Assembly (NCBI GenBank): GCA_964594835.1
Contig: CAZQNA010000002.1
Coordinates: forward strand, 177,800-241,799
DNA from: an uncultured Nitrososphaerota archaeon
Lineage (GTDB): Archaea; Korarchaeota; Korarchaeia; Korarchaeales; Korarchaeaceae
Length of the DNA stretch: 64,000 nt
Reading direction: 5' to 3'
Part shown: positions 23,807-53,319 of the stretch, piece after piece
Layout of the letters: the number at the start of each line of letters is the position of its first letter
Numbering within the stretch: the stretch's first letter is position 1
Notes under the pieces: model-generated
What the model was told of the DNA's origin: nothing
The model's database searches: none
What the model saw: the letters and a program-made list of their open reading frames with translations, nothing else
Program-made: the position numbers and the translations under genes

Positions 23807-25771
23807 GTGAGGCGCCCCCCAGCCCTGATTCTGGCGGCCGGAAGGGCAACGCGTATGCAACCCTACTCCAGGGAGATGCCCAAGTCGCTCTTCGAGCTGG
23901 CGCCCGGCCTCGCGATAATGGACCTGACCATCAGGTGGCTCAGGGAGGAGGGCGTACAGAGGGTTGTGATAGTCACCAGGCCGAGCCTGGTCCCGGCTCT
24001 CCGGGAGAGGTACGACGACTCGGTGGAGATAGTTGCCACGGACGTCGAGGAGGGGTTCGGAAACCTCTACTCCCTGAGGGCGGGAATGAGGGCCCTGGAC
24101 TCTGAGGAGTTCCTGCTCCTCATGTCCGACCACATCTTCGAGCCCGACATCCTCAGGAGGCTCTTGAGGAGGGGAGGGGGCGCCGCGTTCACCCTCTGCC
24201 TCGACAGGAACCCGCCCTGGGACAAGATAGAGGAGGGCCTCAAGGTCGTCGTCCGCGACGGGAGGGTGGAGCAGGTCGGGAAGAGGGCCCCTCCCTACTA
24301 CGGGGTGGACACGGGCCTCTTCTACTGCTCCAGGGGGGCCAGGAGGATAGTGGAGGAGACCATAGCGGAGGTGGGGCCGAGGGCGACGGTGGCCGACGCG
24401 CTGAGGGCGGCCATCGCCAGGGGCGAGGTCGACTACGTAGACGTCACGGGCCTACTCTGGATGGATGTGGACACGCCCGAGGAGCTCGAGGAGGCCCGGA
24501 GGCTCCTGCCCAGCCTGCTAAGGAGGAGCCTCCTGAAGCCCGGCGACGGGCCGGTCTCGAGGTACATGAACAGGCCCATCTCCACGAGGATCTCCGTTTG
24601 GCTCTTCCTGCGGGGGATCTCGATCAGCCCCAACCTGATCTCCGCGGTCTCGTTCCTGACCTGCGTGGGGGGCGCGGCCCTGGTGGCTCTTGGGAGGGCC
24701 TTGATCGGCGGGGCGCTCATCCAGCTCTCCTCGATACTCGACGGAGTTGACGGGGAGGTGGCGAGGCTCTTCCAGAGGGCCAGCAGGTTCGGTAAGGTGT
24801 TCGACGCCCTCCTCGACAGGTACGCCGACCTTGCGGTGGTGGCCGCCTTCGGCCTCGCGATGTGGCCCCTCGACAGGCTGGGATTCCTCTCGGTGGCCGC
24901 AGCCGCCGGGAACGTGTTCATCGTGAGCTACGTCTCGCACCTGGCGGGCTGGGGGGATGACCCGAGGGTCGCGGAGATGCGGGCGTGGAGCCCGGCGGGG
25001 AGGGACGTGAGGCTCCTGGTGGCCGCCCTGGCGGCGATGGCCGGGAGGCCGGACCTCTTCCTGATTTACATGGCGACGATCCCACTGGCCTTCTCTGCGG
25101 CCCTGTTCTGGGCCGTCCTCGTGGGGCCGAGGCCAGCCGGGAGGCCGGCCCTCCAGAGGCCCGAGAGGAGGGAGCCAATCCCCAGGGTCGAGGCCAGGCC
25201 GGTGAGCAGGAGGCGAAGGCTGCGGAGGGCGGAGAGAGCCCTGGGAACGCTCCTGTCCAGCTCCATAAAGCTCGCCCTCGCCCTCTTCATAATTAGGGTC
25301 GTCGAGAGATTGATGTCGGGATTCAGCCCGATCCCGATGGGCCCGTTCCAGCTGGTGCCGGCCGACCTGCTCTCTTTCGTCGAGCTCGTGGCGGTCGTTT
25401 ACTTCGGCTACAGGATCCTGATGGCCCTGAAGTATCTCGTGGACCTGACCTCGGGGTGGCTGGTGAGGAAGCTGGGGGCCGTCACGGAGGCCGCGGTCAA
25501 CAGGGCGCTCGTGGACCTCCTCTACCTGAGCTTCCTCGCGGTGCTGATGTGGATAGCGCCCTCCAGGGTCTCTAGCCTGCCGGGCCTCGGCGAGGTGGCG
25601 GAGAGGGTCGTGCTGCTGGTCCTCCTGGTGTTCTTCGTTCTGATAGTCTACGACCTCATGAAGCTCTTCTACAGGAGCTTCCGCGGGGCCTACGAGCGGA
25701 TGGTGGCCAGGCTGGCCGAGAGACTGAGGGCGGTGGAGGAGTCGAGGTCCAGGCCCGAGGCCGCCCAGTGA
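23807..25771 (+). CDS. Bifunctional IPCT/DIPPS-like enzyme (di-myo-inositol-phosphate synthesis) with an extra C-terminal membrane domain
   Basis: ILAAGRATRM...PK nucleotidyltransferase; DGPVSRYMNRPIS and DGVDGEVAR...G..FD..LDRYAD CDP-alcohol phosphotransferase motif; ~180 aa extra multi-TM tail. Confidence 0.85.
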   Translation: MRRPPALILAAGRATRMQPYSREMPKSLFELAPGLAIMDLTIRWLREEGVQRVVIVTRPSLVPALRERYDDSVEIVATDVEEGFGNLYSLRAGMRALDSEEFLLLMSDHIFEPDILRRLLRRGGGAAFTLCLDRNPPWDKIEEGLKVVVRDGRVEQVGKRAPPYYGVDTGLFYCSRGARRIVEETIAEVGPRATVADALRAAIARGEVDYVDVTGLLWMDVDTPEELEEARRLLPSLLRRSLLKPGDGPVSRYMNRPISTRISVWLFLRGISISPNLISAVSFLTCVGGAALVALGRALIGGALIQLSSILDGVDGEVARLFQRASRFGKVFDALLDRYADLAVVAAFGLAMWPLDRLGFLSVAAAAGNVFIVSYVSHLAGWGDDPRVAEMRAWSPAGRDVRLLVAALAAMAGRPDLFLIYMATIPLAFSAALFWAVLVGPRPAGRPALQRPERREPIPRVEARPVSRRRRLRRAERALGTLLSSSIKLALALFIIRVVERLMSGFSPIPMGPFQLVPADLLSFVELVAVVYFGYRILMALKYLVDLTSGWLVRKLGAVTEAAVNRALVDLLYLSFLAVLMWIAPSRVSSLPGLGEVAERVVLLVLLVFFVLIVYDLMKLFYRSFRGAYERMVARLAERLRAVEESRSRPEAAQ

Positions 25772-36612: not shown

Positions 36613-37057
36613 GGCTATCGGTTCGCAGCTCACCCGCGACCCCCTCCGAGGGGGCTCATAACGTTGTCCCCGCCGACCCTCTCCCGAGACGCTCCAAACG
36701 TTTATGCCCTTCTGGGGAGAGGCTCGCTGGTCTCCCACGCTACGATGCTCGCGACCAACGCCCTCCTGGGGCAGGAGGGGCTGGAACTCCCCCTGGTGGC
36801 TCTATTTACCACTGGCTACATTCTAAGAAGCAGGAAGAGTAAGGCTGAACGTAACGCTCATAGAAAAATGGGGAGGCACTCTACCAAGTTGAAACCACAG
36901 TTAGGTTGGTCGCTGGGACTCCCATAAATAGCTGCGGTTCTCTATAGGGGCTGAGGGGCTGCTACCCTGTTTAGTGATCTGCTGTGTGTATATCCTAATG
37001 TTAAAGAGAGGTTGGAGAACCTTGCGACGAACTCCAAGAGTCTAAAAGTGATTGTTA

Positions 37058-37882
37058 TTAGTACGCGCGATTGAATGTCGGCTGGCCGAGCTTCGCCATT
37101 AGCTTAGCCTCGCTGCTGGCTTCCACAAAATTCTCAATCAGCTTGTCAAACTCTTTGGAGAGAACTTCATGCGTAGGACCTTGCTTTACGAGCCTTCCGG
37201 CGAGAAGCAGAGCGGCGTAGTCAGCCACCCTCCGCGCCTGTGACTGATCGTGTGTAACTATCACTACGGTCATGCCACGCTTGAGTTCTACTATGAGATC
37301 CTCGATCTTCTTGGCGCTGACGGGATCCAAGTTGGAGGTCGGCTCGTCCATGAGGAGAATCTTGGGCCTCATAGCCAAGGCCCTAGCTATGCAGAGCCTC
37401 TGCTGCTGTCCCCCGCTAAGGCTGGGGGCCGGGGCCTTTAGTCTGTCTCTGACCTCGTTCCACAGTGCGGCCTTCCTCAGGGCCCACTCTACGAGTTCAT
37501 CTAACTCTCGCCTTGATTTAACTAGCCCGTTGAGCCTAGGACCGATGGCTACGTTGTCATAGATTGAGAGGTGAGGGAAGGGGTTTGGTACCTGAAACAC
37601 CATGCCGATCATTCGGCTAATTGGGGACATGCTGACGTTTGGAGCATAGATGTTCCTTCCGAAGAGCTTGACAGTGCCCTTTACTCTGGCCTCCGGGTTC
37701 AACGTTATCAACTTGTTGAACGTGCGGAGTAGCGTGGATTTACCGCTGCCAGAGGGGCCCATAATGGCGAAGACTGCATTATGAGGTATGCGCAGATCCA
37801 CATTATCTATGGCTTTCAGGGAGCCGTAAAACACCGTTAGACCGTTCGTCTCGATCGAATATCTTGTTTCGGTCACCTTCAT
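37058..37882 (-). CDS. pstB: Phosphate ABC transporter ATPase
   Basis: GPSGSGKST, GMVFQVPNPFP, LSGGQQQRLCIARALA and LLMDEPTS. Confidence 0.95.
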   Translation of the reverse strand: MKVTETRYSIETNGLTVFYGSLKAIDNVDLRIPHNAVFAIMGPSGSGKSTLLRTFNKLITLNPEARVKGTVKLFGRNIYAPNVSMSPISRMIGMVFQVPNPFPHLSIYDNVAIGPRLNGLVKSRRELDELVEWALRKAALWNEVRDRLKAPAPSLSGGQQQRLCIARALAMRPKILLMDEPTSNLDPVSAKKIEDLIVELKRGMTVVIVTHDQSQARRVADYAALLLAGRLVKQGPTHEVLSKEFDKLIENFVEASSEAKLMAKLGQPTFNRAY

Positions 37883-38730
37883 AACTTCACCTCCCTAACC
37901 AAGCTCTTTAACGCGAGAATTGCAGTAACAACAGCCACAATAAGGATGAGAGTCGCTGCCCAAGCGATCTGCTGCCAGTTCTCATAGCTCGTTTGAGAGA
38001 ACTTGTATATTAGGAGTGGTATCGCTCCAGAAGGGCCGAAAAAACCGTAGAAGCCGTGAAATGCCGAGCCTGCTGTGAACAGGATAGGCGCGGTCTCACC
38101 AATGGCCTTGGCCAGTCCAAGGAGAGCGCCTGTGAAAATTCCTCTTCTGGCTATCCCGAAAAACACGTAGAATACAGCTTTCGGTCTTGGTAGGCCTAAC
38201 GCGAAGGCTGCCTCCCTATACGTGTGCGGAATGCTCCGAAGAGCCTCACACACTTGGATGGTCACGTAGGGCAGCATCATTATTGCCAAGCTAACTGAGC
38301 CAGCTAACGTCGACGGCGTGCCCATCGGGACTACCAATACTACATACACAAACAGGCTCACGACTATGGATGGGAACTCGATTAGTAGATGTGAAATCGT
38401 CTCACTGAGTCTAGAAAGGATTGACTTTGGATACTCGGCCATGAATGTCCCGGCCAAGATACTTACGGGCAGGCTAATCAGGGAGGCGATAGTTACCATT
38501 GCTGCAGATCCTTTGATAACTGGTCCTATTCCACCAAGCTCGGAGCTCCCTGGGGCTGGGGGAGAGTCTATGAAGAACCTGGGGCCAGCCGAGATTATCA
38601 CGGGGAGACCTCTTGAGAACGCCTCAAAGACTATGTGGAGCATTGGCGCCACGGACGCGGCCGTTAGCACGAAAATAGCCAGCATCAGAACTCTATCCTT
38701 AATTATCCTGAGCTTAGAAACGGATTCCAT
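37879..38730 (-). CDS. pstA: Phosphate ABC transporter permease
   Basis: PSIVV, YREAAFALG and GETAPILFT; position in the operon. Confidence 0.93.
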   Translation of the reverse strand: MESVSKLRIIKDRVLMLAIFVLTAASVAPMLHIVFEAFSRGLPVIISAGPRFFIDSPPAPGSSELGGIGPVIKGSAAMVTIASLISLPVSILAGTFMAEYPKSILSRLSETISHLLIEFPSIVVSLFVYVVLVVPMGTPSTLAGSVSLAIMMLPYVTIQVCEALRSIPHTYREAAFALGLPRPKAVFYVFFGIARRGIFTGALLGLAKAIGETAPILFTAGSAFHGFYGFFGPSGAIPLLIYKFSQTSYENWQQIAWAATLILIVAVVTAILALKSLVREVKL

Positions 38731-39637
38731 ACTTTTTCACCCATCTAGATGCTATGTAGACCCCCAGAGTAGTGCTACCCATGCCTATCGCGAGCATGAC
38801 CAGAGTGGCTCCGTACAAGGCCGACGACATGTACCCGTACGTGAAGGCGTTACCGAACTGGCTGGCCAATAAGCTGGAGACTGTGTAGCCCGGGGCGAAG
38901 GGTGAGAGACTCATGTTGAATGCGTTACCAACAGTCATAGACACGGCGATGGTCTCACCAATGGCCCTGCCGAAGCCCAGCGCCGTTGCAGACACAATAG
39001 CCGGCTTTACCATTCCTATGAGCAGGCGTATAGCCTCCGTTCGAGTAGCCCCCAGACTCCAGATGGCCTCTCGGTATGTAAAGGGCACCATCGCGTAGCT
39101 CTCTCTAATGATCGCGGTGGTGTAAGGTGTAATCATAGCGGCCAGAACGACGGCAGCCGTGAAGATGCACTGCCCAGACGGCGAGTATGTTGCGAGATAT
39201 GGGATCCAACCAAAGATTCTGCTTATCGGGAAGGCTACGTGATCTCTAATGAAGGGAGCCAGGACCTTCATTCCCCATAAGCCATAGACCACCGTCGGTA
39301 GGCAAGCCATGACGTCCAAGACTGTCGAGAGCATCTCTCTCATCTTTTCTGGTGCGAATTCGTTGACAAATATAGCAGTAGATGTAGATAATGGTAATGA
39401 AAAGATTATCGCTAGCGATGAAGTGTAGAAGGTACCCCACAAAGCAGCGGCAATGCCGTACTTCTCCGCCTCTGGGTTCCCTTCTGGGGCCCTCCAGACA
39501 TTGGTCAAGACAAAGCTAACCCCCTCCCTGCTGAGAATTGGTATTGACTTATACGTAATGACTGCAAGCATCGCAACAAGCAAGAGGAAGAGGGTTATTG
39601 AGAAAACAGAAGTGAACAGCTTGAACCTATCGTGCAT
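38714..39637 (-). CDS. pstC: Phosphate ABC transporter permease
   Basis: LPTVVYGLWG, LGATRTE and GRAIGETIAV. Confidence 0.93.
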   Translation of the reverse strand: MHDRFKLFTSVFSITLFLLLVAMLAVITYKSIPILSREGVSFVLTNVWRAPEGNPEAEKYGIAAALWGTFYTSSLAIIFSLPLSTSTAIFVNEFAPEKMREMLSTVLDVMACLPTVVYGLWGMKVLAPFIRDHVAFPISRIFGWIPYLATYSPSGQCIFTAAVVLAAMITPYTTAIIRESYAMVPFTYREAIWSLGATRTEAIRLLIGMVKPAIVSATALGFGRAIGETIAVSMTVGNAFNMSLSPFAPGYTVSSLLASQFGNAFTYGYMSSALYGATLVMLAIGMGSTTLGVYIASRWVKKYGIRF

Positions 39638-39694
39638 TCCTACTTATCACCTCCTCGGGCGAGAGCGTCGCGGTAGTAGTCGCTCGCTGCCATC

Positions 39695-40831
39695 TCAGCC
39701 CCTCAGCTCTTGAGCGACCTTCAACCCTATACTGGCGGCCTCCGGGGGTAGAGGAACGTAGCCCTCGACGATGCGCTCAGGTTTCTGTCCCTCAGTCACT
39801 ATCCACTCGATGAAGTCGGCCAGAGTTCTGGCTTTGAATGCGTCATAGCTGTCCTTCCCCTTGACGATGAAGTGACTGAAGGCTATTATGGGGTAGGACT
39901 CATCTCCAGGGGGATTGAGTACGATTTCAAGCTCTCCCTCCCAATTTGCGTCTGGCTCGGGGAGTCTCAGAGTAACATTGGCTACGCCCTTCGCTATGCT
40001 ATCTGTGGTGGGGAGGACGAACTTTCCGTTCCTATTCTGAAGAGCGGCCACACCCAGGCCACCAGTGTAGGCGAGTTCGACGTAACCAATCGAATACGGC
40101 GTGTTCTTCACCGTCTCTGCGACTCCTTGGTTACCTGGGGCCCCTACCCCGCGACCCAGGGCATCTAAGGGCCACTCAACCAACTTACCAGCCCCCACTC
40201 TCTCCTTCCACTCGTCCGACACGAGGCTGAGGTAGGTGGTGAATACGCAGGTAGTTCCACTGGAGTCGCTCCTGTGGACTAGAACTATCTGTTTGTGGGG
40301 CAGGCGGCCAGCCACTTCTGGATTGAGTTCCCTTACCACGCTGTCGTCCCAGTACTCCACCTCGCCCAGCAGGATCTTCACTAGCACTTCCGGAGTTAGC
40401 TTCAAGTGGTAATCAGGCGGAATCTCGGGGAGATTGTATACAACCGCTACTCCGCCGACTATTATGGGGAACTGATAGATCTTGCCGTACTTCTGAGCGG
40501 CGGTTCTCCAAGTCTCCGTGGTCAAGGGTGGATCGCTTGCGGCAAAATCAACAACGCCGTTAATTATGTCGTTCTGACCCTTCCCGCTGCCACCACCAAC
40601 GTACTCGACGTAGACGTTGGAGTTCTTTGAGGTATACTCTTTAATCCACGCCTGGATTTGCGCCTCCGGAAATGTGGCGCCACTCCCCTTCAACAAGATT
40701 GGTTGGTGGCTCTCGGGAGCCCCCCTGCCTTCTGAACTTTTGGGAATTCTAGAGGGGCCTCCTAGATACAAGATCCCGAGCATCACCAACCCTAGGACAA
40801 CACACACGGCCGCTGCCTTCTTCCCTCCCAT
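39695..40831 (-). CDS. pstS: Phosphate ABC transporter substrate-binding protein
   Basis: GSGATFP, GGGSGKG, DFAASD, HRSDSSGTT and SIGYVE; N-terminal membrane anchor. Confidence 0.95.
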   Translation of the reverse strand: MGGKKAAAVCVVLGLVMLGILYLGGPSRIPKSSEGRGAPESHQPILLKGSGATFPEAQIQAWIKEYTSKNSNVYVEYVGGGSGKGQNDIINGVVDFAASDPPLTTETWRTAAQKYGKIYQFPIIVGGVAVVYNLPEIPPDYHLKLTPEVLVKILLGEVEYWDDSVVRELNPEVAGRLPHKQIVLVHRSDSSGTTCVFTTYLSLVSDEWKERVGAGKLVEWPLDALGRGVGAPGNQGVAETVKNTPYSIGYVELAYTGGLGVAALQNRNGKFVLPTTDSIAKGVANVTLRLPEPDANWEGELEIVLNPPGDESYPIIAFSHFIVKGKDSYDAFKARTLADFIEWIVTEGQKPERIVEGYVPLPPEAASIGLKVAQELRG

Positions 40832-41006
40832 GATTCTCACTACTGCTCAAAAAGAGTGAATTAGAAAAAAAGATTTCCCAAAAGGGTCCACATGGTATAT
40901 TACACGTCCAGCTTTGAGTGGAGAGTCGTGTGGGCTCCCTGGCGTTCAATCCATATGGTTATCCTAATATCTTAGTCAGCGGCTCGCAGAGTTCCATAGG
41001 ATACAT

Positions 41007-41975
41007 ATGCCAAGATACGGGGACATACGAAAAGTGCAGTCCATCAAGGACTCCTACCTAGTGTACCTCCCCAAGGAGTGGTGCAAGAGAAATGAGGTCG
41101 ACAGGGGGAGTGAGGTATCCATACTTGATCTCGGAGATATCCTACTCATCGTTCCTAGAAGAAATCAGCAAAGTGTGGCTAAGATCTCCTTAGATGGGTT
41201 GTCCCCAGAAGAGATAGAGGTCTACATATACGCATTCTACGTAGCTGGGTTCGACCGGATCGAACTGGTTAAGGAGGCCTCTATTAGCCTCGATGAGAGG
41301 TACTTCACAAGATCCTTGATTAAGAGGCTCCTTGGCATGGAGATAGTCCACGAAGAAGCAAATAAGTTGATTTTGGGGGAGGTGATGTCTCCCGGGGATA
41401 TCTCGTCATTAATTCTGAGGAGCTTCCAGCTGGTAGGCCTGGCAATGAACTATCTCCTCTCTTTGCTAGACGGAACTGGTAGGCCAGAGATTATAGGAGA
41501 GGCCGAGGAAGAGGTAGATAGATTCTTTTTCGCCGTCCAGAGGAGGGCCCATCGGCTGACCACATCTCCATCAGACGCCGCGGTCTTTGGCCTGCTGGAT
41601 CGAATGAACTACGTTCAAATAATGAAGTACTTAGAGCGAGTATCGGATCACATAAAGGAACTGGCTTTTGAGATTGCGGCTGACGGCACGACTCTCCCAA
41701 AGGGGTTTGTTGAGGATGTGATAGATCTCTATAACAGATGCTTGCAGGCGTTTACAGAGAAGAGCGCCGAAAAGGCGTTCAATGTAATCAGGAGAAGACA
41801 GACCCTCCGTGAGAGACTGTTTAGAGAGGTGAGTAACAAGACCGTCCTGATGCATCTAATGAGGATTGTTGACTACGTGTCCGACATATCCGAAGTTGTG
41901 CTGGACATGGCGCTGAGATCCAGGGGGAAGGTCGGCATAGAGTTCGCTGAGAAACGTAGCGAAGACGAGATCTAA
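41007..41975 (+). CDS. phoU: Archaeal phosphate uptake regulator (AbrB domain plus PhoU repeats)
   Basis: RKVQ...SYLVYLPKEW AbrB N-terminus; EEEVDRFFF and LERVSDH; divergent from pstS. Confidence 0.9.
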   Translation: MPRYGDIRKVQSIKDSYLVYLPKEWCKRNEVDRGSEVSILDLGDILLIVPRRNQQSVAKISLDGLSPEEIEVYIYAFYVAGFDRIELVKEASISLDERYFTRSLIKRLLGMEIVHEEANKLILGEVMSPGDISSLILRSFQLVGLAMNYLLSLLDGTGRPEIIGEAEEEVDRFFFAVQRRAHRLTTSPSDAAVFGLLDRMNYVQIMKYLERVSDHIKELAFEIAADGTTLPKGFVEDVIDLYNRCLQAFTEKSAEKAFNVIRRRQTLRERLFREVSNKTVLMHLMRIVDYVSDISEVVLDMALRSRGKVGIEFAEKRSEDEI

Positions 41976-42399
41976 AAGAAGCTATTTAGCCAATAACTCC
42001 GCTTAAAGAGAAAGAGTAGGGTTCTATGGTCCTGTCTTCTGTTAGAGGGTTTTACGGGGGGCCTCCGGCTCTTGCTTCGGCGAGATACTCCCTCTGAGGC
42101 GCCACTGGCTGGTGACTAATGATTCCCTAACCTGCTGGTTCTCGCAAGACAAACACTTGGTTCAATTGCCTCCCGGATCAAGTGGCGATGTGTCATGGCG
42201 AGGGCTACATTATCGACAATTAAAGTTGCGCCGGAAGCCCGGCACAGCTACAGGTTGTCTTCCTTCTGCCTAGAACTCTCCTCTCGGATCAAATTCGATT
42301 GGGGCTTGGGCTCTTTAGAGCTACCGCGGCCTCTTGAGCCTGGGCGATTTATACACACCTCTTCAGAACCAGCTACTCGATACGAGATCCATGTCGTGG

Positions 42400-46546: not shown

Positions 46547-48334
46547 TCAGAAGTCCATGGCCTCGTAGATCTCCCTTGGGAGTCCGGGGCAGTTCCTGTC
46601 GAGGTAGTACTTGCTGACCTCGATCTGAGCCCTCAGCAGCCTCTCGAACTCCCCCCTGTCCAGATAGGTGGTCGGATCAAGCTGCCTCAGCCTCTCCCTG
46701 CTTATCCCAGGGACCTCATCCGGGACGAGGACCCTCTCGCCCCAGACCGGATGGGGCCTGTACCTGACGGCCCCCCTGGCCGCCTGCAGGATGAAGAGCT
46801 CCGTCTCCTCGATGGTGGGCCTCTCCCCACCGACGGCCTTGGGGATGCCGTTCTTCTCTACGAGGACGGGCTCCGGCGCCTCGATGACCCTGTCCCCCAG
46901 CTTCACCTCGGTCCACCTGTACTCGGCGATTATCCTGCCGGTGTTGTTGAACAGGTAGACCTCTATCGGGTCGCCGCTCTCGATCCTCTTCTTCAGGAAC
47001 TCGTAGAACCTGACGACGTGGGCCGTGTTCGGGACGCCCATGGTGAAGGGCTGGGCGAACCTCGCCACGTACCTGACCCTCCCCACGACCTCCCTGGCCT
47101 GGGCCGGGTGGCCTATGGTCCTGCCGTCGGCCAGCACCTTCGCGGCCAGGGCCGGGTCCTCTATCTTCACCCAAGCCCAGTCGGTGAAGTAGCCGGGGCT
47201 CAGGAAGATGGCGAAGTTGAGGGGCCCCGACGACTCCACGTCCCCGTCGAAGTAGCCGGTGTCCTCGAGCCTGAGCACGGACCTGGAGTTCCTGTTTGGG
47301 ACCCCGAAGTACTGGAAGAGCTTCCCCTCGAAGCAGGGGTTGCCGCTCTCGTCGAACTCCGTGTTCTCGTGCAGGGCGTGCGGACTAGTGGCGGCCCGCC
47401 ACATGGCCTCCTGCTCAGGCGCGAGGTCCTCTGTCTTGGTCCAGGAGCCCCTCTCGGAGCCGATGACCGTGTCCTCGAATATGGCGATTATGTCGTCGTT
47501 CTTGATCACCTGATCCCTGACGTAGTCCAGCGGGTTGATCCCGAACTCCCTCTCGTAGATCAGGGCGTTGTTTGGGGTCCAGACGTAGAGCCCGTGCGTC
47601 GACTTGCCCGTCCCGGTGAGGCCCCAGACGGCCATCACCACGCGCCTCCACTCGCCCCCCGCGGTCCTGACGGTGAACTCCCTCAGCGAGGCGTGCTCGC
47701 CCGTCCCGCCGCGCTTGTACACGTGGTAGATCCAGTGGGTGAGCACCGCCTTCTTCAGCTCTCCCTGGTAGGAGGACACCGTTATGATGGTGAAGTTGTG
47801 GTGCGGGAACCTCATCACCATGAGCATCCTGTCCGTCCCGGGGACGCTTGGGTTCCCCAGGTAGTGCGGGATGTGGAAGATCTCGACGTCGGGCTCCTCG
47901 TCCGGCGGGGCGTCGAAGACCAGCTGCTTCCACCTGTACGCCAGGTCGGGAAACTGCGGGTCGACGTAGGCCCGGGCGTGCATCTGAGCCCTGGTCCCGG
48001 GCTTGCCCACGTAGCCGTCGACCTTGATCAGGGGCCCCTGGGCGAGGATGTGCTCAAGGACCCTCAGCAGGAGGAGCCTGTGCTCGGTCTTCAGCTCGTC
48101 GTCGCTCTCTATGACGACGGTGTTCTTGGCGGACCTGCTCCAGATGTTAGACGCCCAGTTCCAGGACCCGTTCCTGAACCTCGTCCCGTAGAGCTGGGCC
48201 CTCTGTAGGAGATCCGGGGGATTGTCAAGTATCGGGGTGATTCCGGCCCTCTTTTTGACCTTAAGAATTCTCTGGAACGACTCCTTAAAACTCTTAGGGG
48301 TTATCTCTTCTAATGGGGGAATAATACTCTCCAT
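46547..48334 (-). CDS. pckA: Phosphoenolpyruvate carboxykinase (ATP-type)
   Basis: SYQGELKK, GEHA, GLTGTGKSTH P-loop, KNDD, ENT and NRNSR. Confidence 0.88.
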   Translation of the reverse strand: MESIIPPLEEITPKSFKESFQRILKVKKRAGITPILDNPPDLLQRAQLYGTRFRNGSWNWASNIWSRSAKNTVVIESDDELKTEHRLLLLRVLEHILAQGPLIKVDGYVGKPGTRAQMHARAYVDPQFPDLAYRWKQLVFDAPPDEEPDVEIFHIPHYLGNPSVPGTDRMLMVMRFPHHNFTIITVSSYQGELKKAVLTHWIYHVYKRGGTGEHASLREFTVRTAGGEWRRVVMAVWGLTGTGKSTHGLYVWTPNNALIYEREFGINPLDYVRDQVIKNDDIIAIFEDTVIGSERGSWTKTEDLAPEQEAMWRAATSPHALHENTEFDESGNPCFEGKLFQYFGVPNRNSRSVLRLEDTGYFDGDVESSGPLNFAIFLSPGYFTDWAWVKIEDPALAAKVLADGRTIGHPAQAREVVGRVRYVARFAQPFTMGVPNTAHVVRFYEFLKKRIESGDPIEVYLFNNTGRIIAEYRWTEVKLGDRVIEAPEPVLVEKNGIPKAVGGERPTIEETELFILQAARGAVRYRPHPVWGERVLVPDEVPGISRERLRQLDPTTYLDRGEFERLLRAQIEVSKYYLDRNCPGLPREIYEAMDF

Positions 48335-48556
48335 AAGCCTTACCTCCCGCTCACCGGAAGCGGTCGTTTAAAACGAACATGCTCAGGCCCGGGTAAGTTC
48401 CCCGGGTAGTATGAATGGCTTTAGCATAAATTGAGGAAACCATATATCTATCTAAGCCTCATTTTGCTAAATTTTTTGGGGCATTGTCCTATCTCCCCAG
48501 ATTTTTGTTGAATTACTTCGGAATTTGATGGACTATAGGCCGTTTGCCGAGATTAG

Positions 48557-49111
48557 CTAGTTATAGTATAGAGAGAGAGCGGCGACTTTCAGATAGTAAA
48601 GTCGTGTTCTTAATAGATTTACGATGATTCCACAAAATAGTTCTCTGATTTTGGGGATAAGGTCAAAAGCGGCGAACACACTTGGAAAGAATGTGAATAA
48701 GGCCGAAATAAGAAGCAGTCGTTTATCTGCTACTCCCAGATTGTATAAAGTTATGCTAATATTATTTACAAAATACGAATATAAGATTACAATAAATCCG
48801 ATAATGGTGTTTAAATAGAATCTGAACCATTCTCCAAAGACTCTGTAGATATCGGGCTCACTTATCTCCAGACTTACCTTCTTCATCAATCTGTAGGATT
48901 TAATAATTATGTAAACCATCATCGGTATGAATATCTGGAGTCTGAACATCTCAGCTATCCCGTTAGTTGTTGCATTGGATGGCTTTTCAAATATATGCTT
49001 TAAGGTAACAAGTAATATTGAAAGGGTAGAGCCAGTAATTAATCTTAAGGAATTTCTCTCATATCTCGCAATAAACCCACGAGCTTCCTCCTGTGTTAGC
49101 CAAAGTGTCAT
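48557..49111 (-). CDS. Hypothetical four-TM membrane protein (AT-rich island)
   Basis: Four hydrophobic segments; start directly abuts the upstream stop codon. Confidence 0.7.
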   Translation of the reverse strand: MTLWLTQEEARGFIARYERNSLRLITGSTLSILLVTLKHIFEKPSNATTNGIAEMFRLQIFIPMMVYIIIKSYRLMKKVSLEISEPDIYRVFGEWFRFYLNTIIGFIVILYSYFVNNISITLYNLGVADKRLLLISALFTFFPSVFAAFDLIPKIRELFCGIIVNLLRTRLYYLKVAALSLYYN

Positions 49112-50458
49112 TTATCCTCCCCGTGCCCTACTAACTAGAGCTTCCCTGAACGCATCCTCTTGCTTGAAGGTCTTAACTAAAATCTTTCGTCCCCATCTTG
49201 TTCTGATTAATATAGTCGGATCATCAATGACGCACTCCCCCACTCTTTTAGCTACCTCGATGCAAATTCTCTTAGTAAATTCCTCCTTAAACTCCAGTAA
49301 ATACATAGAATTTCTCTCGAAAAGTGGATTCATGGTGACTAAATATCCTAAGGCAAGCTTCGTGGCCAAAGCTGATTTTCCACCAATTCCACTTACCGCG
49401 AGCACAGGAATATTCTTCTTTCTACGGGTACTTACTCCAAGCAAATCACCTGGAACATCAAAGTTAAGGACTAGAGCTGCAGTAGGTTCGACTCCTCTTC
49501 TGAACAATTTTGTACCTTCGCTGGTCCAAACTGCTGTTGATACTAGGGAAGAGCTATCAAATGCCGCAAAGGGATATCCCTTTTCTTCGCACTCTTCAAT
49601 AAGCCTTTCGTCCCAGGCATTAGCTAAGTCATACAAGATCCTTGATCTTACATCAAGCTTTCTACTCAAAGACACCAAGTATTGAAGAAAGTTATTGCAC
49701 TCTAAGCTACCTAATGTCAAGATAAGGATATCATCGATAATGTCCCCTCCGTTTATTAGCCTTAAGATGCTTGGGAATTTACTGAAATCCGAAATAATTC
49801 TGTACATTATCTCTCTGAATACTAGCCATCCGTCCCTAGTTTCAAAGACAGGCGCCCGACTTGAACCTTCTAATATACTTTTTTGATTATATACATTTAT
49901 TTTTATTAGAGCCTCCTCACCTTCCTGAGCAACTCTGAAGGTTCTGGCATTGGATATAGTATAGAGAAGAAACTCATCCAGCCCCTGGTGTTTCCTTGGG
50001 GTGCCCTCTATTCCCGACACTTCGGCTACAACTTCGTTTCGCATACCTACATCCTCGGATAAAAATCTTTCATAATTATACAGAACTTTGCTTATTAATT
50101 TAAATCCTCGAGCGCTTGATCTTAGTAGGCTTGCCATTTTATCGGTTCGAGAGAATCTTTTATTGCCTGCGAACTCGTCTCTAACAGATATCTCTAGACC
50201 AATTACGCATAAATTTCTCGCAAAAGGCGAGTCACAGTAAATCGGATAGATTTCATAAGGCACGCGGCGGAAGAATAACATGGATACTGCTTGGGTATCT
50301 GATGGGTGAGCCGGAAGCACCTCTACGCTCGTATTGAAACTAAAGTGATTCCTGCCCTTTATAATCTCAATGAGGGTCTTTTTGTCGATTGCTGTACCGA
50401 CGACTACTACAATCCTTTTACTATCATACAGTGGATAGAATAATGACATAGTTATCAC
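49112..50458 (-). CDS. Hypothetical soluble alpha/beta protein (AT-rich island)
   Basis: 448-aa ORF in AT-rich DNA; IVVVVG..HPSD..NLCVIG and ILTLGSLECN..VLAVSG segments; no signal peptide. Confidence 0.75.
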   Translation of the reverse strand: MITMSLFYPLYDSKRIVVVVGTAIDKKTLIEIIKGRNHFSFNTSVEVLPAHPSDTQAVSMLFFRRVPYEIYPIYCDSPFARNLCVIGLEISVRDEFAGNKRFSRTDKMASLLRSSARGFKLISKVLYNYERFLSEDVGMRNEVVAEVSGIEGTPRKHQGLDEFLLYTISNARTFRVAQEGEEALIKINVYNQKSILEGSSRAPVFETRDGWLVFREIMYRIISDFSKFPSILRLINGGDIIDDILILTLGSLECNNFLQYLVSLSRKLDVRSRILYDLANAWDERLIEECEEKGYPFAAFDSSSLVSTAVWTSEGTKLFRRGVEPTAALVLNFDVPGDLLGVSTRRKKNIPVLAVSGIGGKSALATKLALGYLVTMNPLFERNSMYLLEFKEEFTKRICIEVAKRVGECVIDDPTILIRTRWGRKILVKTFKQEDAFREALVSRARGG

Positions 50459-51251
50459 CCAGTGTTAGAAAGCAATTTATATCCTTCAATCCTGAGTTTT
50501 CTTATCGTTTTTCTCGATCCAATATCCACCCAGCTCTTCAGTCTGCTATAGATGCTCATCCTCGGCTTTATTATATTGAAGGATTTTTGAAGGAAATCTC
50601 TACCAATATCCCCACCGTTGAAGAAAAATTTTGCCAAAATTCTTTCGTCTATAATCATTACCCCACCCCACACAAACCTGTCCCGACGAATATATTCGAG
50701 TGCATTAAGGTTTGGTTTCTCGATAAAGATAGCGTCCCTTAAGTCATAGGGATCTTTCGTGAACATTACCCCAAATCTGGAGAGGGATTCCTCGATAAGG
50801 AACTTTCCGGGGTCAACACCCAATATTGTAACACTTATTTCCGAATTTAGGGAACTCTGTATCAATCCCTCCAAATCAACTCCGATAATGATTATGTCGC
50901 CATACATGATTAGTATCTTCCTGCTGTCAGCTGGAGAGGATTTTCTTACGTACTCGTATGTCTTTAGTACTGCCCCCATAGTTCCTAACCTTTCCGATGG
51001 ATGGGCCCACACTGGAACGTAGTGTTCATAGGCATAAAAGCCAGCTCGTTTTAGAGTTTTTACTACGTCTTTCCACCTATATCCAAGTATAACGATTTTT
51101 TTTTAGCATGAATTTCATTTAACTTTCTCATGGCCCTAACCACAGGGGGGCCTCCATCGATAGGAAGAGCACATTTTTGGGCACTATTCGTTAAAGGCTT
51201 TAGCCTTTTACCGTATCCTCCAGCTAGAACTAAGCCAACTACCTCCGTCAT
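50455..51251 (-). CDS. Sugar-phosphate nucleotidyltransferase, frameshifted at an A9 tract (51096-51104)
   Basis: VLAGGYGKRLKPLT...K in the 5' ORF; after the frame change KIVILGY, LGTMGAV, MYGD, FIEKP, DIGRD and WVDIGS. Confidence 0.85.
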
Positions 51252-51375
51252 AAGCGCTCGAAAGGTGGATGAGGGGGTGAAACGGATAAGCTTTCTCGAG
51301 CATGTAGATATCCATTGACTCTGTTTTAATAGCAGAATTACGAGGAGATATTCAGGCTTTTCGCTATCTTGTTTA

Positions 51376-52368
51376 CTAACTACTCAATAACGGAAAGAAC
51401 CAATCTTCTTTAAAAACTATGTCTGCATAGTTCTGAGGACTGGCAAATATATTTAAATCAGAGGGCTCTAATTTTGCTTTCCAAACTGGAACGTCCCAGG
51501 GAGTAATTCCATTAAATAGAAAAAGATTTTTCCCAAAAACGTGGTAAAAAGCAGGTAAAGCAGAGACATCATAAATTTTAAGGGTAGCCCCTTTACCTTC
51601 GCCAAACCTAACTAGGGACGCCCTAAAGTCTAGGTACGCGTTCTGCTTGGCCAGAGAATCGATAAGTGCTAATGAAGTCGGCGCGATTGACTCGATCGAG
51701 ATTCCGAGTCCAGCCAATGTTAATTTATTGATTATTTTACGTGCTGTTTTTGATAAATACCAACACGGAAACCCTTGGAATCCTAAAACTATAGCGGACG
51801 GGCTATTTCTGTTTGATTGGGAAAAGCCCACCTTTGAAATTTTTCGCGCAGATCTTAGCGGTACTAGATGATCTTTAGAGACGCGGATGATGAGGTAATC
51901 TTCTTTCGTTCTGTGATCGAAAATGCCATAAAGTTTGAAGTCATTCAGTTTAACTGATAGAGCTTTTTGCTGGGGAACTATTCCCAGAGATACTACTGTC
52001 GCAGACTGTGGTCCCCTTCCAACGAGTGTTTTATATGCTGGCCAAGTTAGGGAGGCAGAGGCTAATTCGCGGGACCCGTCAATCGGATCAATTAGGCCTA
52101 CTACGACGGGGTCCCCTGAAATAATTAAGCGAGTAGACTCTATAACTGCATAAGCACCAAGGTTATGTCTCCTTGAAAAAGAAGAAATGAGCCTTCTGAT
52201 CTCTTTTTCTAACTTTCTATCAAACCCATATTCGACGTGACCACCTGCTTTGGACAAAATCTTTTTGTGAGAACCATAATTAAGGACTTCGCTGACGACT
52301 CTACGACACAAAAGTGTAATTTTATCATATAACGTTATGAGTAACTCAGCTTTATCCATTCCACCCAA
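51376..52368 (-). CDS. Divergent inositol monophosphatase/FBPase (FIG) superfamily phosphatase
   Basis: FDRKLE, VIES, LIDPIDGSRE, AYLDFR and KIYDVSA. Confidence 0.75.
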   Translation of the reverse strand: MGGMDKAELLITLYDKITLLCRRVVSEVLNYGSHKKILSKAGGHVEYGFDRKLEKEIRRLISSFSRRHNLGAYAVIESTRLIISGDPVVVGLIDPIDGSRELASASLTWPAYKTLVGRGPQSATVVSLGIVPQQKALSVKLNDFKLYGIFDHRTKEDYLIIRVSKDHLVPLRSARKISKVGFSQSNRNSPSAIVLGFQGFPCWYLSKTARKIINKLTLAGLGISIESIAPTSLALIDSLAKQNAYLDFRASLVRFGEGKGATLKIYDVSALPAFYHVFGKNLFLFNGITPWDVPVWKAKLEPSDLNIFASPQNYADIVFKEDWFFPLLSS

Positions 52369-52443
52369 TGATTGTGTGGACCCATATAATCGTAAGCGTT
52401 ACTAAACTGGTCTTCACAGAAGAGTTAGAGGGAGATCGAATGG

Positions 52444-52797
52444 TTACGTCGCTTTCTCCACTTTGGCCCTCCAGTAGGGGTCAGATATCCTCACAGTGTC
52501 GTCCTTCGGCTGCGTCGAGACCTCCAGCACCTCGCTGTCCTCCAGGGGCACGAGCCTGTGCTCGACCCCCGGCTCGATGGTTATGCCCTCGCCCGGCGAG
52601 AGCTCGTACTCCCCCTCCGACGTCTCGACCCTGAGACGGCCCGAGACCACGTAGAGGGACTCCTTCTTCATTGGATGGACGTGGAGGCTCGTCGGCCTGC
52701 CTTCCCTCATCTCCAGGATCTTGGCGGCGTACTCCGGCTCGTCGGCGACCAGCACCTCTCTGCCCCAGGGCTTCCTGACGGACCTCCCCCTCATCAA
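52444..52797 (-). CDS. Cupin (mannose-6-phosphate isomerase type II-like)
   Basis: RKPWGRE, SLHVHPMKKES and IEPGVEHR. Confidence 0.88.
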   Translation of the reverse strand: MMRGRSVRKPWGREVLVADEPEYAAKILEMREGRPTSLHVHPMKKESLYVVSGRLRVETSEGEYELSPGEGITIEPGVEHRLVPLEDSEVLEVSTQPKDDTVRISDPYWRAKVEKAT

Positions 52798-52900
52798 CTC
52801 ACACCGGGGCCTCCCAACCTCCCCGCGGGGAGCTAAAAAGCCCGCACTACTTTCACGCCTGGAAAATATGCGGAGTTCGAACCACTCGAGTGGAGCCGGC

Positions 52901-53319
52901 TCACCAGGCCGAGCAGGACCCCCTGAACGGGCAGGACGAGCAGACGCTCAGGTCGGCCAGGAACTCGTTTGGGAGATCCTCCTCCGCCTCGAGGCTCACT
53001 CGGGGAACGAGGCGCTTTAGACCCACCGCCAGGAACCTCTCCTCCATTGGGTCCCCTCCCTCGGGGATGTGACCTGGATCCAAGAGGATCCTGCCCCCCA
53101 GGGACCTTATCGCCTCCCGAGTCGGAGACGCTCGACCCAGGCGACCTCCCCCTCCGCGATCGGCCCGGCCTCCGACTCGAGGATCACCCTCTCCCCAACC
53201 GACGGAGCGGTGGGGCCGACTGGAACCAGGACGACGTCTCTGACTCCCCGGGAGACCTCCTCCTCGGACCCTCTCGGGACCCTCAGTACCCTGCGACCGC
53301 CCTCACGCATTGCCCTCAC
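52901..53319 (-). CDS. Hypothetical (possibly ASCH/PUA-like) protein with a C-terminal CxxCx5C motif; frameshifted near 53117
   Basis: Adding one G joins ORFs 53107..53319 and 52901..53083 (…RLGEAIRSLGGRILLDPG…CSSCPFRGSC). Confidence 0.55.

Follow-up and report, generated by a model that had tools for sequence, protein, structure and literature searches.

A horizontally acquired low-GC island in an archaeal genome, with an undescribed conserved gene pair, a divergent phosphatase and a split nucleotidyltransferase

The window analysed here is a 64-kb stretch of DNA (G000:C2:177800-241799) from the genome of an uncultured hydrothermal-vent archaeon, assembled to 1.82 Mb in 24 contigs (97% complete). 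Between a cupin gene and the gene for PEPCK it contains an island of about 4.1 kb that was acquired horizontally and varies between strains. The island carries the genes of a 448-aa soluble protein and of a multi-transmembrane (TM) protein, together with a divergent phosphatase and a nucleotidyltransferase. This content, grouped in a new way around a conserved gene pair that has not been described before, is probably biosynthetic, and one of its steps is broken or recoded. Tentatively, we read the island as a module that makes a product of the nucleotide-activated sugar or polyol-phosphate type and includes a dephosphorylation. The features of the island are as follows (ORF, open reading frame).

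48356..52453, no strand: low-GC inserted island, delimited by the break points of similarity to congeners; boundaries within about 50 bp
51376..52368, minus strand: 330-aa divergent IMPase/FBPase-superfamily phosphatase; likely true start ATG at 52359 (327 aa)
51063..51251, minus strand: N-terminal piece of the nucleotidyltransferase, 62 aa, zero frame; PF00483 at 28.2 bits (cut-off 21.2), profile positions 2-35
51096..51104, minus strand: A9 run with the heptamer A-AAA-AAA, -1 frameshift site, read directly in the sequence
50455..51102, minus strand: C-terminal part of the nucleotidyltransferase, -1 frame; open frame of 215 aa (translation P0009), listed ORF 50455-51012 (185 aa)
49112..50458, minus strand: 448-aa soluble protein of an unnamed family; no Pfam, NCBIfam, PADLOC or PHROGs match
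48557..49111, minus strand: 184-aa multi-TM protein; three hydrophobic segments above threshold

A preliminary description of this DNA presented an AT-rich foreign cassette of four co-oriented genes, the last three translationally coupled. All island genes are indeed located on the minus strand, and both proposed couplings were read in the sequence. The GTG start of the 448-aa gene at 50458 overlaps the TGA stop at 50455-50457 (GTGA, 50455-50458), and its TAA stop at 49112-49114 abuts the ATG of the TM gene at 49111 (TAAATG junction, 49109-49114). An alternative start of the 448-aa gene, the ATG at 50449, is used by the database gene call (445 aa). The ORFs of 330, 448 and 184 aa stand as described, whereas the nucleotidyltransferase is not one ORF but two in different frames; thus, the cassette has four genes only if the -1 shift is bypassed. 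Both enzymes are divergent, as had been stated, and no glycosyltransferase, epimerase or flippase family was detected inside the island using Pfam and NCBIfam. According to the hydropathy scan, the 448-aa protein has no segment above the threshold and is soluble as described, and the supposed 4-TM protein is a multi-TM protein in which three segments, not four, exceed the threshold.

Foreign origin and strain variability of the island

The GC content of the island is 0.41, and that of the host DNA is 64-71%. In 500-base windows over 48500-52499 the GC content is 0.36-0.44, compared with 0.62-0.71 on both sides. The GC-normalised tetranucleotide usage of the island correlates with that of the host at r=0.33, compared with 0.93 for host against host. 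The island is absent from the congeners G001 and G004, in which the cupin and PEPCK genes are about 750 bp apart. The DNA similarity with these congeners stops at 48346/48355 and restarts at 52454/52455, that is, at the island edges; therefore, the insertion is specific to this lineage. The island is flanked by two host genes.

52444..52797, minus strand: cupin (PMI-like) gene of host GC, directly upstream, part of the flank and not of the island; Cupin_2 E 1.8e-11, MannoseP_isomer E 5.7e-08; present in G001/G004 at 75-78% protein identity
46547..48334, minus strand: PEPCK gene of the host, directly downstream; PEPCK_ATP E 8.9e-18; 93-94% protein identity in G001/G004

The island does not have the marks of an integrative mobile element. 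No flanking direct repeats were found at its boundaries, no tRNA gene is present within the window, and neither an integrase-like family nor a phage family of known function was found among the island ORFs using Pfam and PHROGs. A search of Rfam over 48000-53000 gave no match at E<=1.

Contigs of four sequencing runs (X1-X4) from two studies were aligned over 47800-53000. X1 may be the source sample, and X2-X4 belong to another study; the runs in which this DNA occurs carry the label hydrothermal vent metagenome, and none of those listed is an RNA run. Across the left junction run X1 record 6, X3 record 18 and X4 record 26, and across the right one X1 record 7, X2 record 16, X3 record 23 and X4 record 32. 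Since both junctions are bridged by contigs of two studies, the island is apparently not an assembly artefact. No indels are listed in any aligned contig, and all aligned X2 contigs show no differences within the island. In X1 the word depth of the island contigs is about 7.2 against about 19 for the flanks, contig depth being a poor measure, and GC-rich loose ends are present at 48346 (X4) and 52467 (X3). The lower depth and the loose ends suggest that island-less variants co-exist in the same samples. The sequences of the loose ends do not match G001 or G004.

Several observations concern the flanks themselves. The segment 52899-53191 lies in the PEPCK-cupin interval in G001 and G004 (L027/L028) and on the far side of the cupin gene here, with its orientation unchanged; therefore, a local rearrangement accompanied the insertion. 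Against the same two genomes, the cupin gene is more diverged (79% nucleotide identity) than the PEPCK gene (88-90%). A TTTTAAA box is located about 35-41 nt before the PEPCK ATG, within 48356-48400, at or beyond the end of congener similarity. Thus, PEPCK may now be transcribed from boundary or island sequence. The assemblies of G001 (C16/C12) and G004 (C14/C5) break within PEPCK (L027-L030), at residues about 460-528 of 595, and run X1 contains a variant contig with 13 differences at 47998-48161. These breaks and the variant contig suggest strain variation within PEPCK.

The 448-aa protein and its membrane partner

For the 448-aa protein, 1.84 billion representatives were searched exhaustively with HMMER. 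Five proteins, itself included, reached E<=0.001, and the best foreign match has an E value of 3.4e-10. Using a metagenome scan, 14 loci of the family were confirmed out of 78 pattern matches. The GC content of 11 of these loci is island-like (37-42%), and the tetranucleotide usage of the metagenome loci correlates with that of the island at r 0.40-0.55. The window protein is only 20-24% identical to every other member, and in the alignment of 15 sequences 16 columns are invariant, among them those of the motifs SD.QAA, TLGG.EHN.F and FD.AN.WD. As these columns are kept at such low identity, the 448-aa protein looks like an enzyme. None of the 15 members matches a Pfam or NCBIfam family. When the 15-row alignment was used in a word-indexed search, only P0008 and the window's own protein were found among 8000 candidates. 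Pattern matches in genome contigs (10) and in viral contigs (88) gave no confirmed relative; the window protein, the most divergent member, was the query for confirmation, and therefore true relatives may have been missed. A limited literature search found no publication addressing the family.

The arrangement of the 448-aa gene with a TM gene is conserved. In 10 of the 14 loci, an ORF of 131-192 aa encoding a multi-TM protein is next on the same strand, the two genes overlapping by 4 nt or lying about 10 nt apart, and these partners have several hydrophobic segments and a charged N-terminal helix. Three further loci have a multi-TM ORF within about 120 nt or overlapping, and one (L023) has none. 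The 184-aa protein of the window agrees with these partners in position and build. It shows no Pfam family at E<=0.1, and it does not match PF01066 (CDP-alcohol phosphatidyltransferase).

Genes of sugar-phosphate chemistry occur beside the pair at some other loci. In L012, L013 and L015 a HAD-IIB phosphatase is encoded in the same operon, overlapping by 4 nt or spaced by 12 nt. It matches Hydrolase_3; in NCBIfam its best models, below their cut-offs, are of the archaeal phosphoglycolate-phosphatase type. The 448-aa homologues of these three loci are 78-91% identical and form one lineage, so that together they amount to about a single observation. L011 has a bona fide ManC (TIGR01479, 458 bits, cut-off 373) that is convergent with the pair at a distance of about 620 bp, and GT2 genes lie a few kb away in L016, L017 and L022. 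In the position of the phosphatase, therefore, HAD-IIB proteins stand in L012, L013 and L015 and a protein of the IMPase fold stands in the island; for sugar activation, the counterparts of the ManC of L011 are the PF00483 protein of the island and the PMI-like cupin. Because sugar activation and sugar-phosphate phosphatases of two unrelated folds recur beside the pair, we tentatively favour the biosynthetic explanation. The preliminary description had named a compatible-solute or lipid-headgroup pathway as its second choice. This choice gains from the recurring HAD phosphatase and ManC neighbours and now fits better, as a conditional reading.

The first choice of that description was a nucleotide second-messenger antiviral system consisting of synthase, eraser, sensor and membrane effector. 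What speaks for it is the layout, a compact, strain-variable foreign operon ending in a small TM protein. None of the five island proteins matches PADLOC at E<=1, and no cyclase or effector like those of CBASS, Pycsar or Thoeris was found among them. There is no PHROGs family of known function either; the 62-aa piece has a weak match (E 0.0067) to a family of unknown function. The supposed synthase belongs to a sugar-1-phosphate nucleotidyltransferase family and is frameshifted, at other loci the pair lies near genes of sugar-phosphate enzymes, glycosyltransferases and housekeeping functions, and three scans of viral contigs found no relative. The antiviral reading is thus unsupported, and we regard it as extremely unlikely. 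Chromosomal genes are present in the contigs of the metagenome loci (EPSP synthase, an FrhB-like protein and PaREP1), and no viral contig was found with the 448-aa family; thus, the carriers of the pair are cellular.

Two other conserved genes were observed at these loci. In all six type-B loci (L010, L016-L020) a gene of 301-335 aa is convergent with the pair, directly after the TM partner (e.g. L017:2392-3297, minus strand), and in four type-A loci a 177-aa gene is divergent upstream. Neither has a Pfam or NCBIfam match or an interpretable PHROGs match, and the PDB sequences were searched for the 301-aa gene only. A partial ORF upstream in metagenome loci was considered as the tail of an SDR epimerase, and no support for this was found.

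The split nucleotidyltransferase and the divergent phosphatase

Both pieces of the nucleotidyltransferase match the NTP_transferase family PF00483 above the cut-off of 21.2 bits. The 62-aa piece contains LAGGYGKRLKPLT and carries the N-terminal GGYGKRLKPLT loop, including the GxGxR pattern. The C-terminal part scores 33.5-33.6 bits over profile positions 48-235 (open frame) or 80-235. At the site of the shift the zero frame reads GCT AAA AAA AAA TCG, and beyond the A9 run the -1 frame still matches the family. The enzyme is not encoded in one uninterrupted frame, and a -1 shift is needed at 51096-51104, which is the sole A9 run in the window. The motifs GGxGxRLxPLT, LGT.GA, YGD, EKP and D.G are readable across the pieces, and we assume for them their customary roles. 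All NCBIfam matches of the nucleotidyltransferase are far below the cut-offs, no PDB sequence matches it at E<=1, and its pattern has no match in viral contigs.

Both studies cover the A9 run, in X1 record 7 and X2 record 15, with no differing letters and no gaps. Since the run is identical in contigs of two studies, the frameshift is apparently not a sequencing error. Production of the nucleotidyltransferase requires -1 slippage at the A9 run, without which the activation step is missing from this copy of the module. The sequence makes recoding or transcriptional slippage at the run possible, and a recent inactivating mutation is equally consistent with it.

A comparable archaeal case is fucA1 of Sulfolobus solfataricus, which is expressed by programmed -1 frameshifting at A-AAA-AAT (PMC1616953). 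Both genes consist of a zero-frame and a -1-frame ORF overlapping at an A-rich slippery heptamer (PMC1616953). The island nucleotidyltransferase differs from fucA1 in that it is known from its sequence alone, no flanking structure is predicted, and its split is seen without homologues. The A9-split nucleotidyltransferase is therefore put forward as a testable candidate for recoding in archaea. To our knowledge, few cases of recoding are known in this domain.

The same lesion leads to another explanation, in which the island is inactive cargo. Part of the population would then carry a fragment that was gained recently, and with its pathway already disrupted by the frameshift it would have no function as a unit. 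The identical frameshift in two studies favours it, as do the lower island depth in X1 (7.2 against 19) together with the island-less loose ends, and the absence from G001 and G004. The four-gene set was also not found elsewhere in scans of genomes, viral contigs and metagenomes. On the other hand, the other three ORFs are intact, and the single lesion falls exactly on the slippery A-AAA-AAA with the family motifs kept. The archaeal gene split alike at A-AAA-AAT is expressed by -1 frameshifting (PMC1616953), and the island shows no differences across the aligned X2 contigs. We regard inactive cargo as unlikely, though by no means negligible; were it the case, the island would be an ordinary example of strain-level gene flux.

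The 330-aa protein was described beforehand as an IMPase-like phosphatase, and this holds at the level of the fold. Neither PF00459 nor any other Pfam family matches it at E<=0.1, no NCBIfam family matches it, and P0003 and P0004 likewise have no Pfam match. Its profile found no IMPase or other phosphatase among the PDB sequences. An AF2 model made from four sequences (mean pLDDT 47.9) is confident only over about residues 1-170, and its C-terminal half is unreliable. In this model the protein appears as a two-domain alpha/beta sandwich, and FBPase and SBPase are among the predicted fold matches. The residues Glu77, Asp94, Pro95, Asp97, Gly98 and Ser99 (DPIDGS, residues 94-99) and Asp267 are invariant in all four aligned members. 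The family thus has the Glu, the DPxDG[ST] motif and the C-terminal Asp of the superfamily, and we take Glu77, DPIDGS and Asp267 to be the metal ligands. The lack of a Pfam match points to a divergent branch of the superfamily and not to a member of the curated family. It also differs in length from IMPase, FBPase and SuhB (Inositol_P, PF00459), with 330 aa compared with about 250-270 aa. No segment exceeds the threshold in the hydropathy scan.

The 330-aa family is small. A word-indexed search gave three relatives. It occurs in three of the 43 species genomes that represent the phylum in the collection. Of 94 pattern matches in contigs of GTDB species genomes one was confirmed, on a G003 contig, and none of 35 was confirmed in viral contigs. 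The G003 homologue has native GC (0.60) and is an isolated gene on the opposite strand, with DUF116 on one side and a nitroreductase gene on the other, beside an FBP aldolase/phosphatase gene; another homologue is present in G002. The G003 neighbourhood is syntenic with 44-57 kb of the window, in which the FBPase and nitroreductase genes are adjacent and the native copy is absent. The island copy is the only member of the family in this genome.

This distribution fits an explanation in which the useful gene of the island is the phosphatase, serving the host inositol/di-myo-inositol-phosphate metabolism, and the other genes are passengers. PF00459 was found in none of the five genomes of the genus, with all 14 control genomes positive, and MIPS was found in all five. 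The window also contains the following gene, and the host PF01066 genes are located elsewhere in the genome.

23807-25771, plus strand: fusion of NTP_transferase and CDP-alcohol phosphatidyltransferase, 654 aa; best NCBIfam match the bifunctional IPCT/DIPP synthase at 236.8 bits, below the cut-off of 580

The last 240 or so residues of this fusion have no family assignment. Since MIPS and the IPCT/DIPPS-like fusion are present without a canonical IMPase, the 330-aa family could be the IMPase-type phosphatase of the genus, and the island copy would then be a xenologous replacement of the native gene. Against this, G001 and G004 have MIPS and the fusion but neither the 330-aa family nor PF00459; therefore, either the family is dispensable or another phosphatase does the job. 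The substrate of the phosphatase is only presumed, and the C-terminal half of the model is unreliable. We consider such a replacement rather improbable. If true, a genus with MIPS and an IPCT/DIPPS-like gene may have in the 330-aa family the IMPase-type phosphatase that it otherwise lacks.

A second lower-GC stretch was observed at 37000-42000 of the window, with a GC content of 0.49-0.54 compared with about 0.67. It holds a phosphate-uptake operon on the minus strand and a gene beside it.

37058-37882, minus strand: ABC ATPase, phosphate-uptake operon
37879-38730, minus strand: permease, phosphate-uptake operon
38714-39637, minus strand: 307-aa ORF, no family given, phosphate-uptake operon
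39695-40840, minus strand: PBP_like_2 binding protein, phosphate-uptake operon
41007-41975, plus strand: PhoU/MazE-domain gene, beside the operon

In tetranucleotide usage this stretch is intermediate, correlating with the host at r=0.57, and it may be another acquired block.

Proposed pathway and comparison with known systems

In the biosynthetic explanation that we tentatively prefer, the nucleotidyltransferase would activate a sugar- or polyol-1-phosphate to a nucleoside diphosphate or CDP donor. The 448-aa protein, held at the membrane or working with it via the TM protein, would use this donor or a related phosphorylated intermediate. Then the IMPase-fold phosphatase would remove a phosphate from the precursor or the product. 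The overall order would be donor activation, transfer and dephosphorylation, as in the two-step synthase/phosphatase routes to solutes and headgroups. The foreign origin, the family or fold of the gene products, the frameshift and the conserved arrangement of the 448-aa and TM genes are established; we infer the chemistry, the order of the steps and any complex of the 448-aa and TM proteins.

Several results weigh against this explanation. The preliminary description proposed to look for the cassette in other genomes; the four island genes were not found together at other loci, and what recurs is the arrangement of the 448-aa and TM genes. The 14 loci lack relatives of both the 330-aa protein and the island nucleotidyltransferase, the link to the HAD phosphatase comes from one lineage and the link to ManC from one locus, and the 330-aa family stands alone in the congeners. 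The nucleotidyltransferase is frameshifted in the contigs of both studies, and no stable RNA structure was found downstream of the A9 run (z = -0.81). Hidden Markov models of two partner types score -1.5 and -3.9 on the window TM protein, whereas shuffled sequences reach 6.5; as the homology of the TM partners is undetectable, what is conserved is the arrangement.

Further points concern the 448-aa protein. It has no PDB sequence match, and the profile of the 15-row alignment gave a single row at chance level (E 0.46). The structural comparison advised beforehand was of no help: the AF2 model from a five-sequence alignment is poor (pLDDT 32.6), and Foldseek on it found nothing at E<=0.001. Atlas feature scores of 0.85-0.87 to LIC12162, CGA-synthase, GT28 and TagF-like clusters are weak leads only, and hhalign against 21 GT28_C-type proteins gave a probability of 3.8% over 18 columns at the TLGGPEHN motif. 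The LIC12162 lead gained no support: TIGR04331 has no match in G000, and no NCBIfam family is common to the 15 members.

The same enzymes may be ordered differently, with the island supplying a precursor. The 448-aa protein would then be kinase- or mutase-like, the phosphatase would trim a sugar bisphosphate to the 1-phosphate, and the nucleotidyltransferase would activate it, following the logic of GDP-heptose. A phosphatase, a nucleotidyltransferase and one uncharacterised enzyme suit this order of steps, the fold matches of the 330-aa protein include FBPase and SBPase, and the C-terminal piece of the nucleotidyltransferase weakly matches HddC in NCBIfam (E 0.04). This match is, however, far below significance; the 448-aa protein showed neither a kinase family nor a P-loop, and the conserved TM partner would not be needed. 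Thus, we consider precursor supply very unlikely.

The favoured module leads to a wider proposal, which is doubtful in its full form. The 448-aa and TM proteins may constitute a membrane-associated enzyme system of thermophilic archaea that makes a phospho- or glyco-conjugate (a solute, a lipid headgroup or a surface glycan unit) and recruits non-homologous phosphatases for the last step, a HAD phosphatase in one lineage and the IMPase-fold protein here, with the donor gated by slippage at the A9 run. If the biosynthetic explanation holds, the pair would be an unannotated enzyme family in a recognisable metabolic setting, and through it a new solute or envelope component of archaea could be approached in a concrete way.

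Two known pathways resemble the proposed module. In mannosylglycerate synthesis, MPGS and the HAD-IIB phosphatase MPGP form a two-step synthase/phosphatase route together with ManC. The likeness consists of sugar activation and a sugar-phosphate phosphatase around a central enzyme, and the HAD-IIB phosphatase and ManC beside the pair elsewhere belong to the same broad families. The 448-aa protein differs in being unlike MPGS or any Pfam family; the island arrangement also has a conserved membrane partner, and its phosphatase is of the IMPase fold and not HAD.

The second pathway, that of di-myo-inositol-phosphate, uses IPCT, the membrane domain of DIPPS and an IMPase-type phosphatase. It differs from the island in several points: the 184-aa TM protein has no CDP-OH_P_transf match, the DG..AR motif that we presume for this domain is not seen in it, and the 448-aa protein is an extra component with no counterpart in that pathway. 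The combination of a nucleotidyltransferase, a small membrane protein and an IMPase-fold phosphatase is the likeness between the two, and the host has its own IPCT/DIPPS-like fusion and MIPS.

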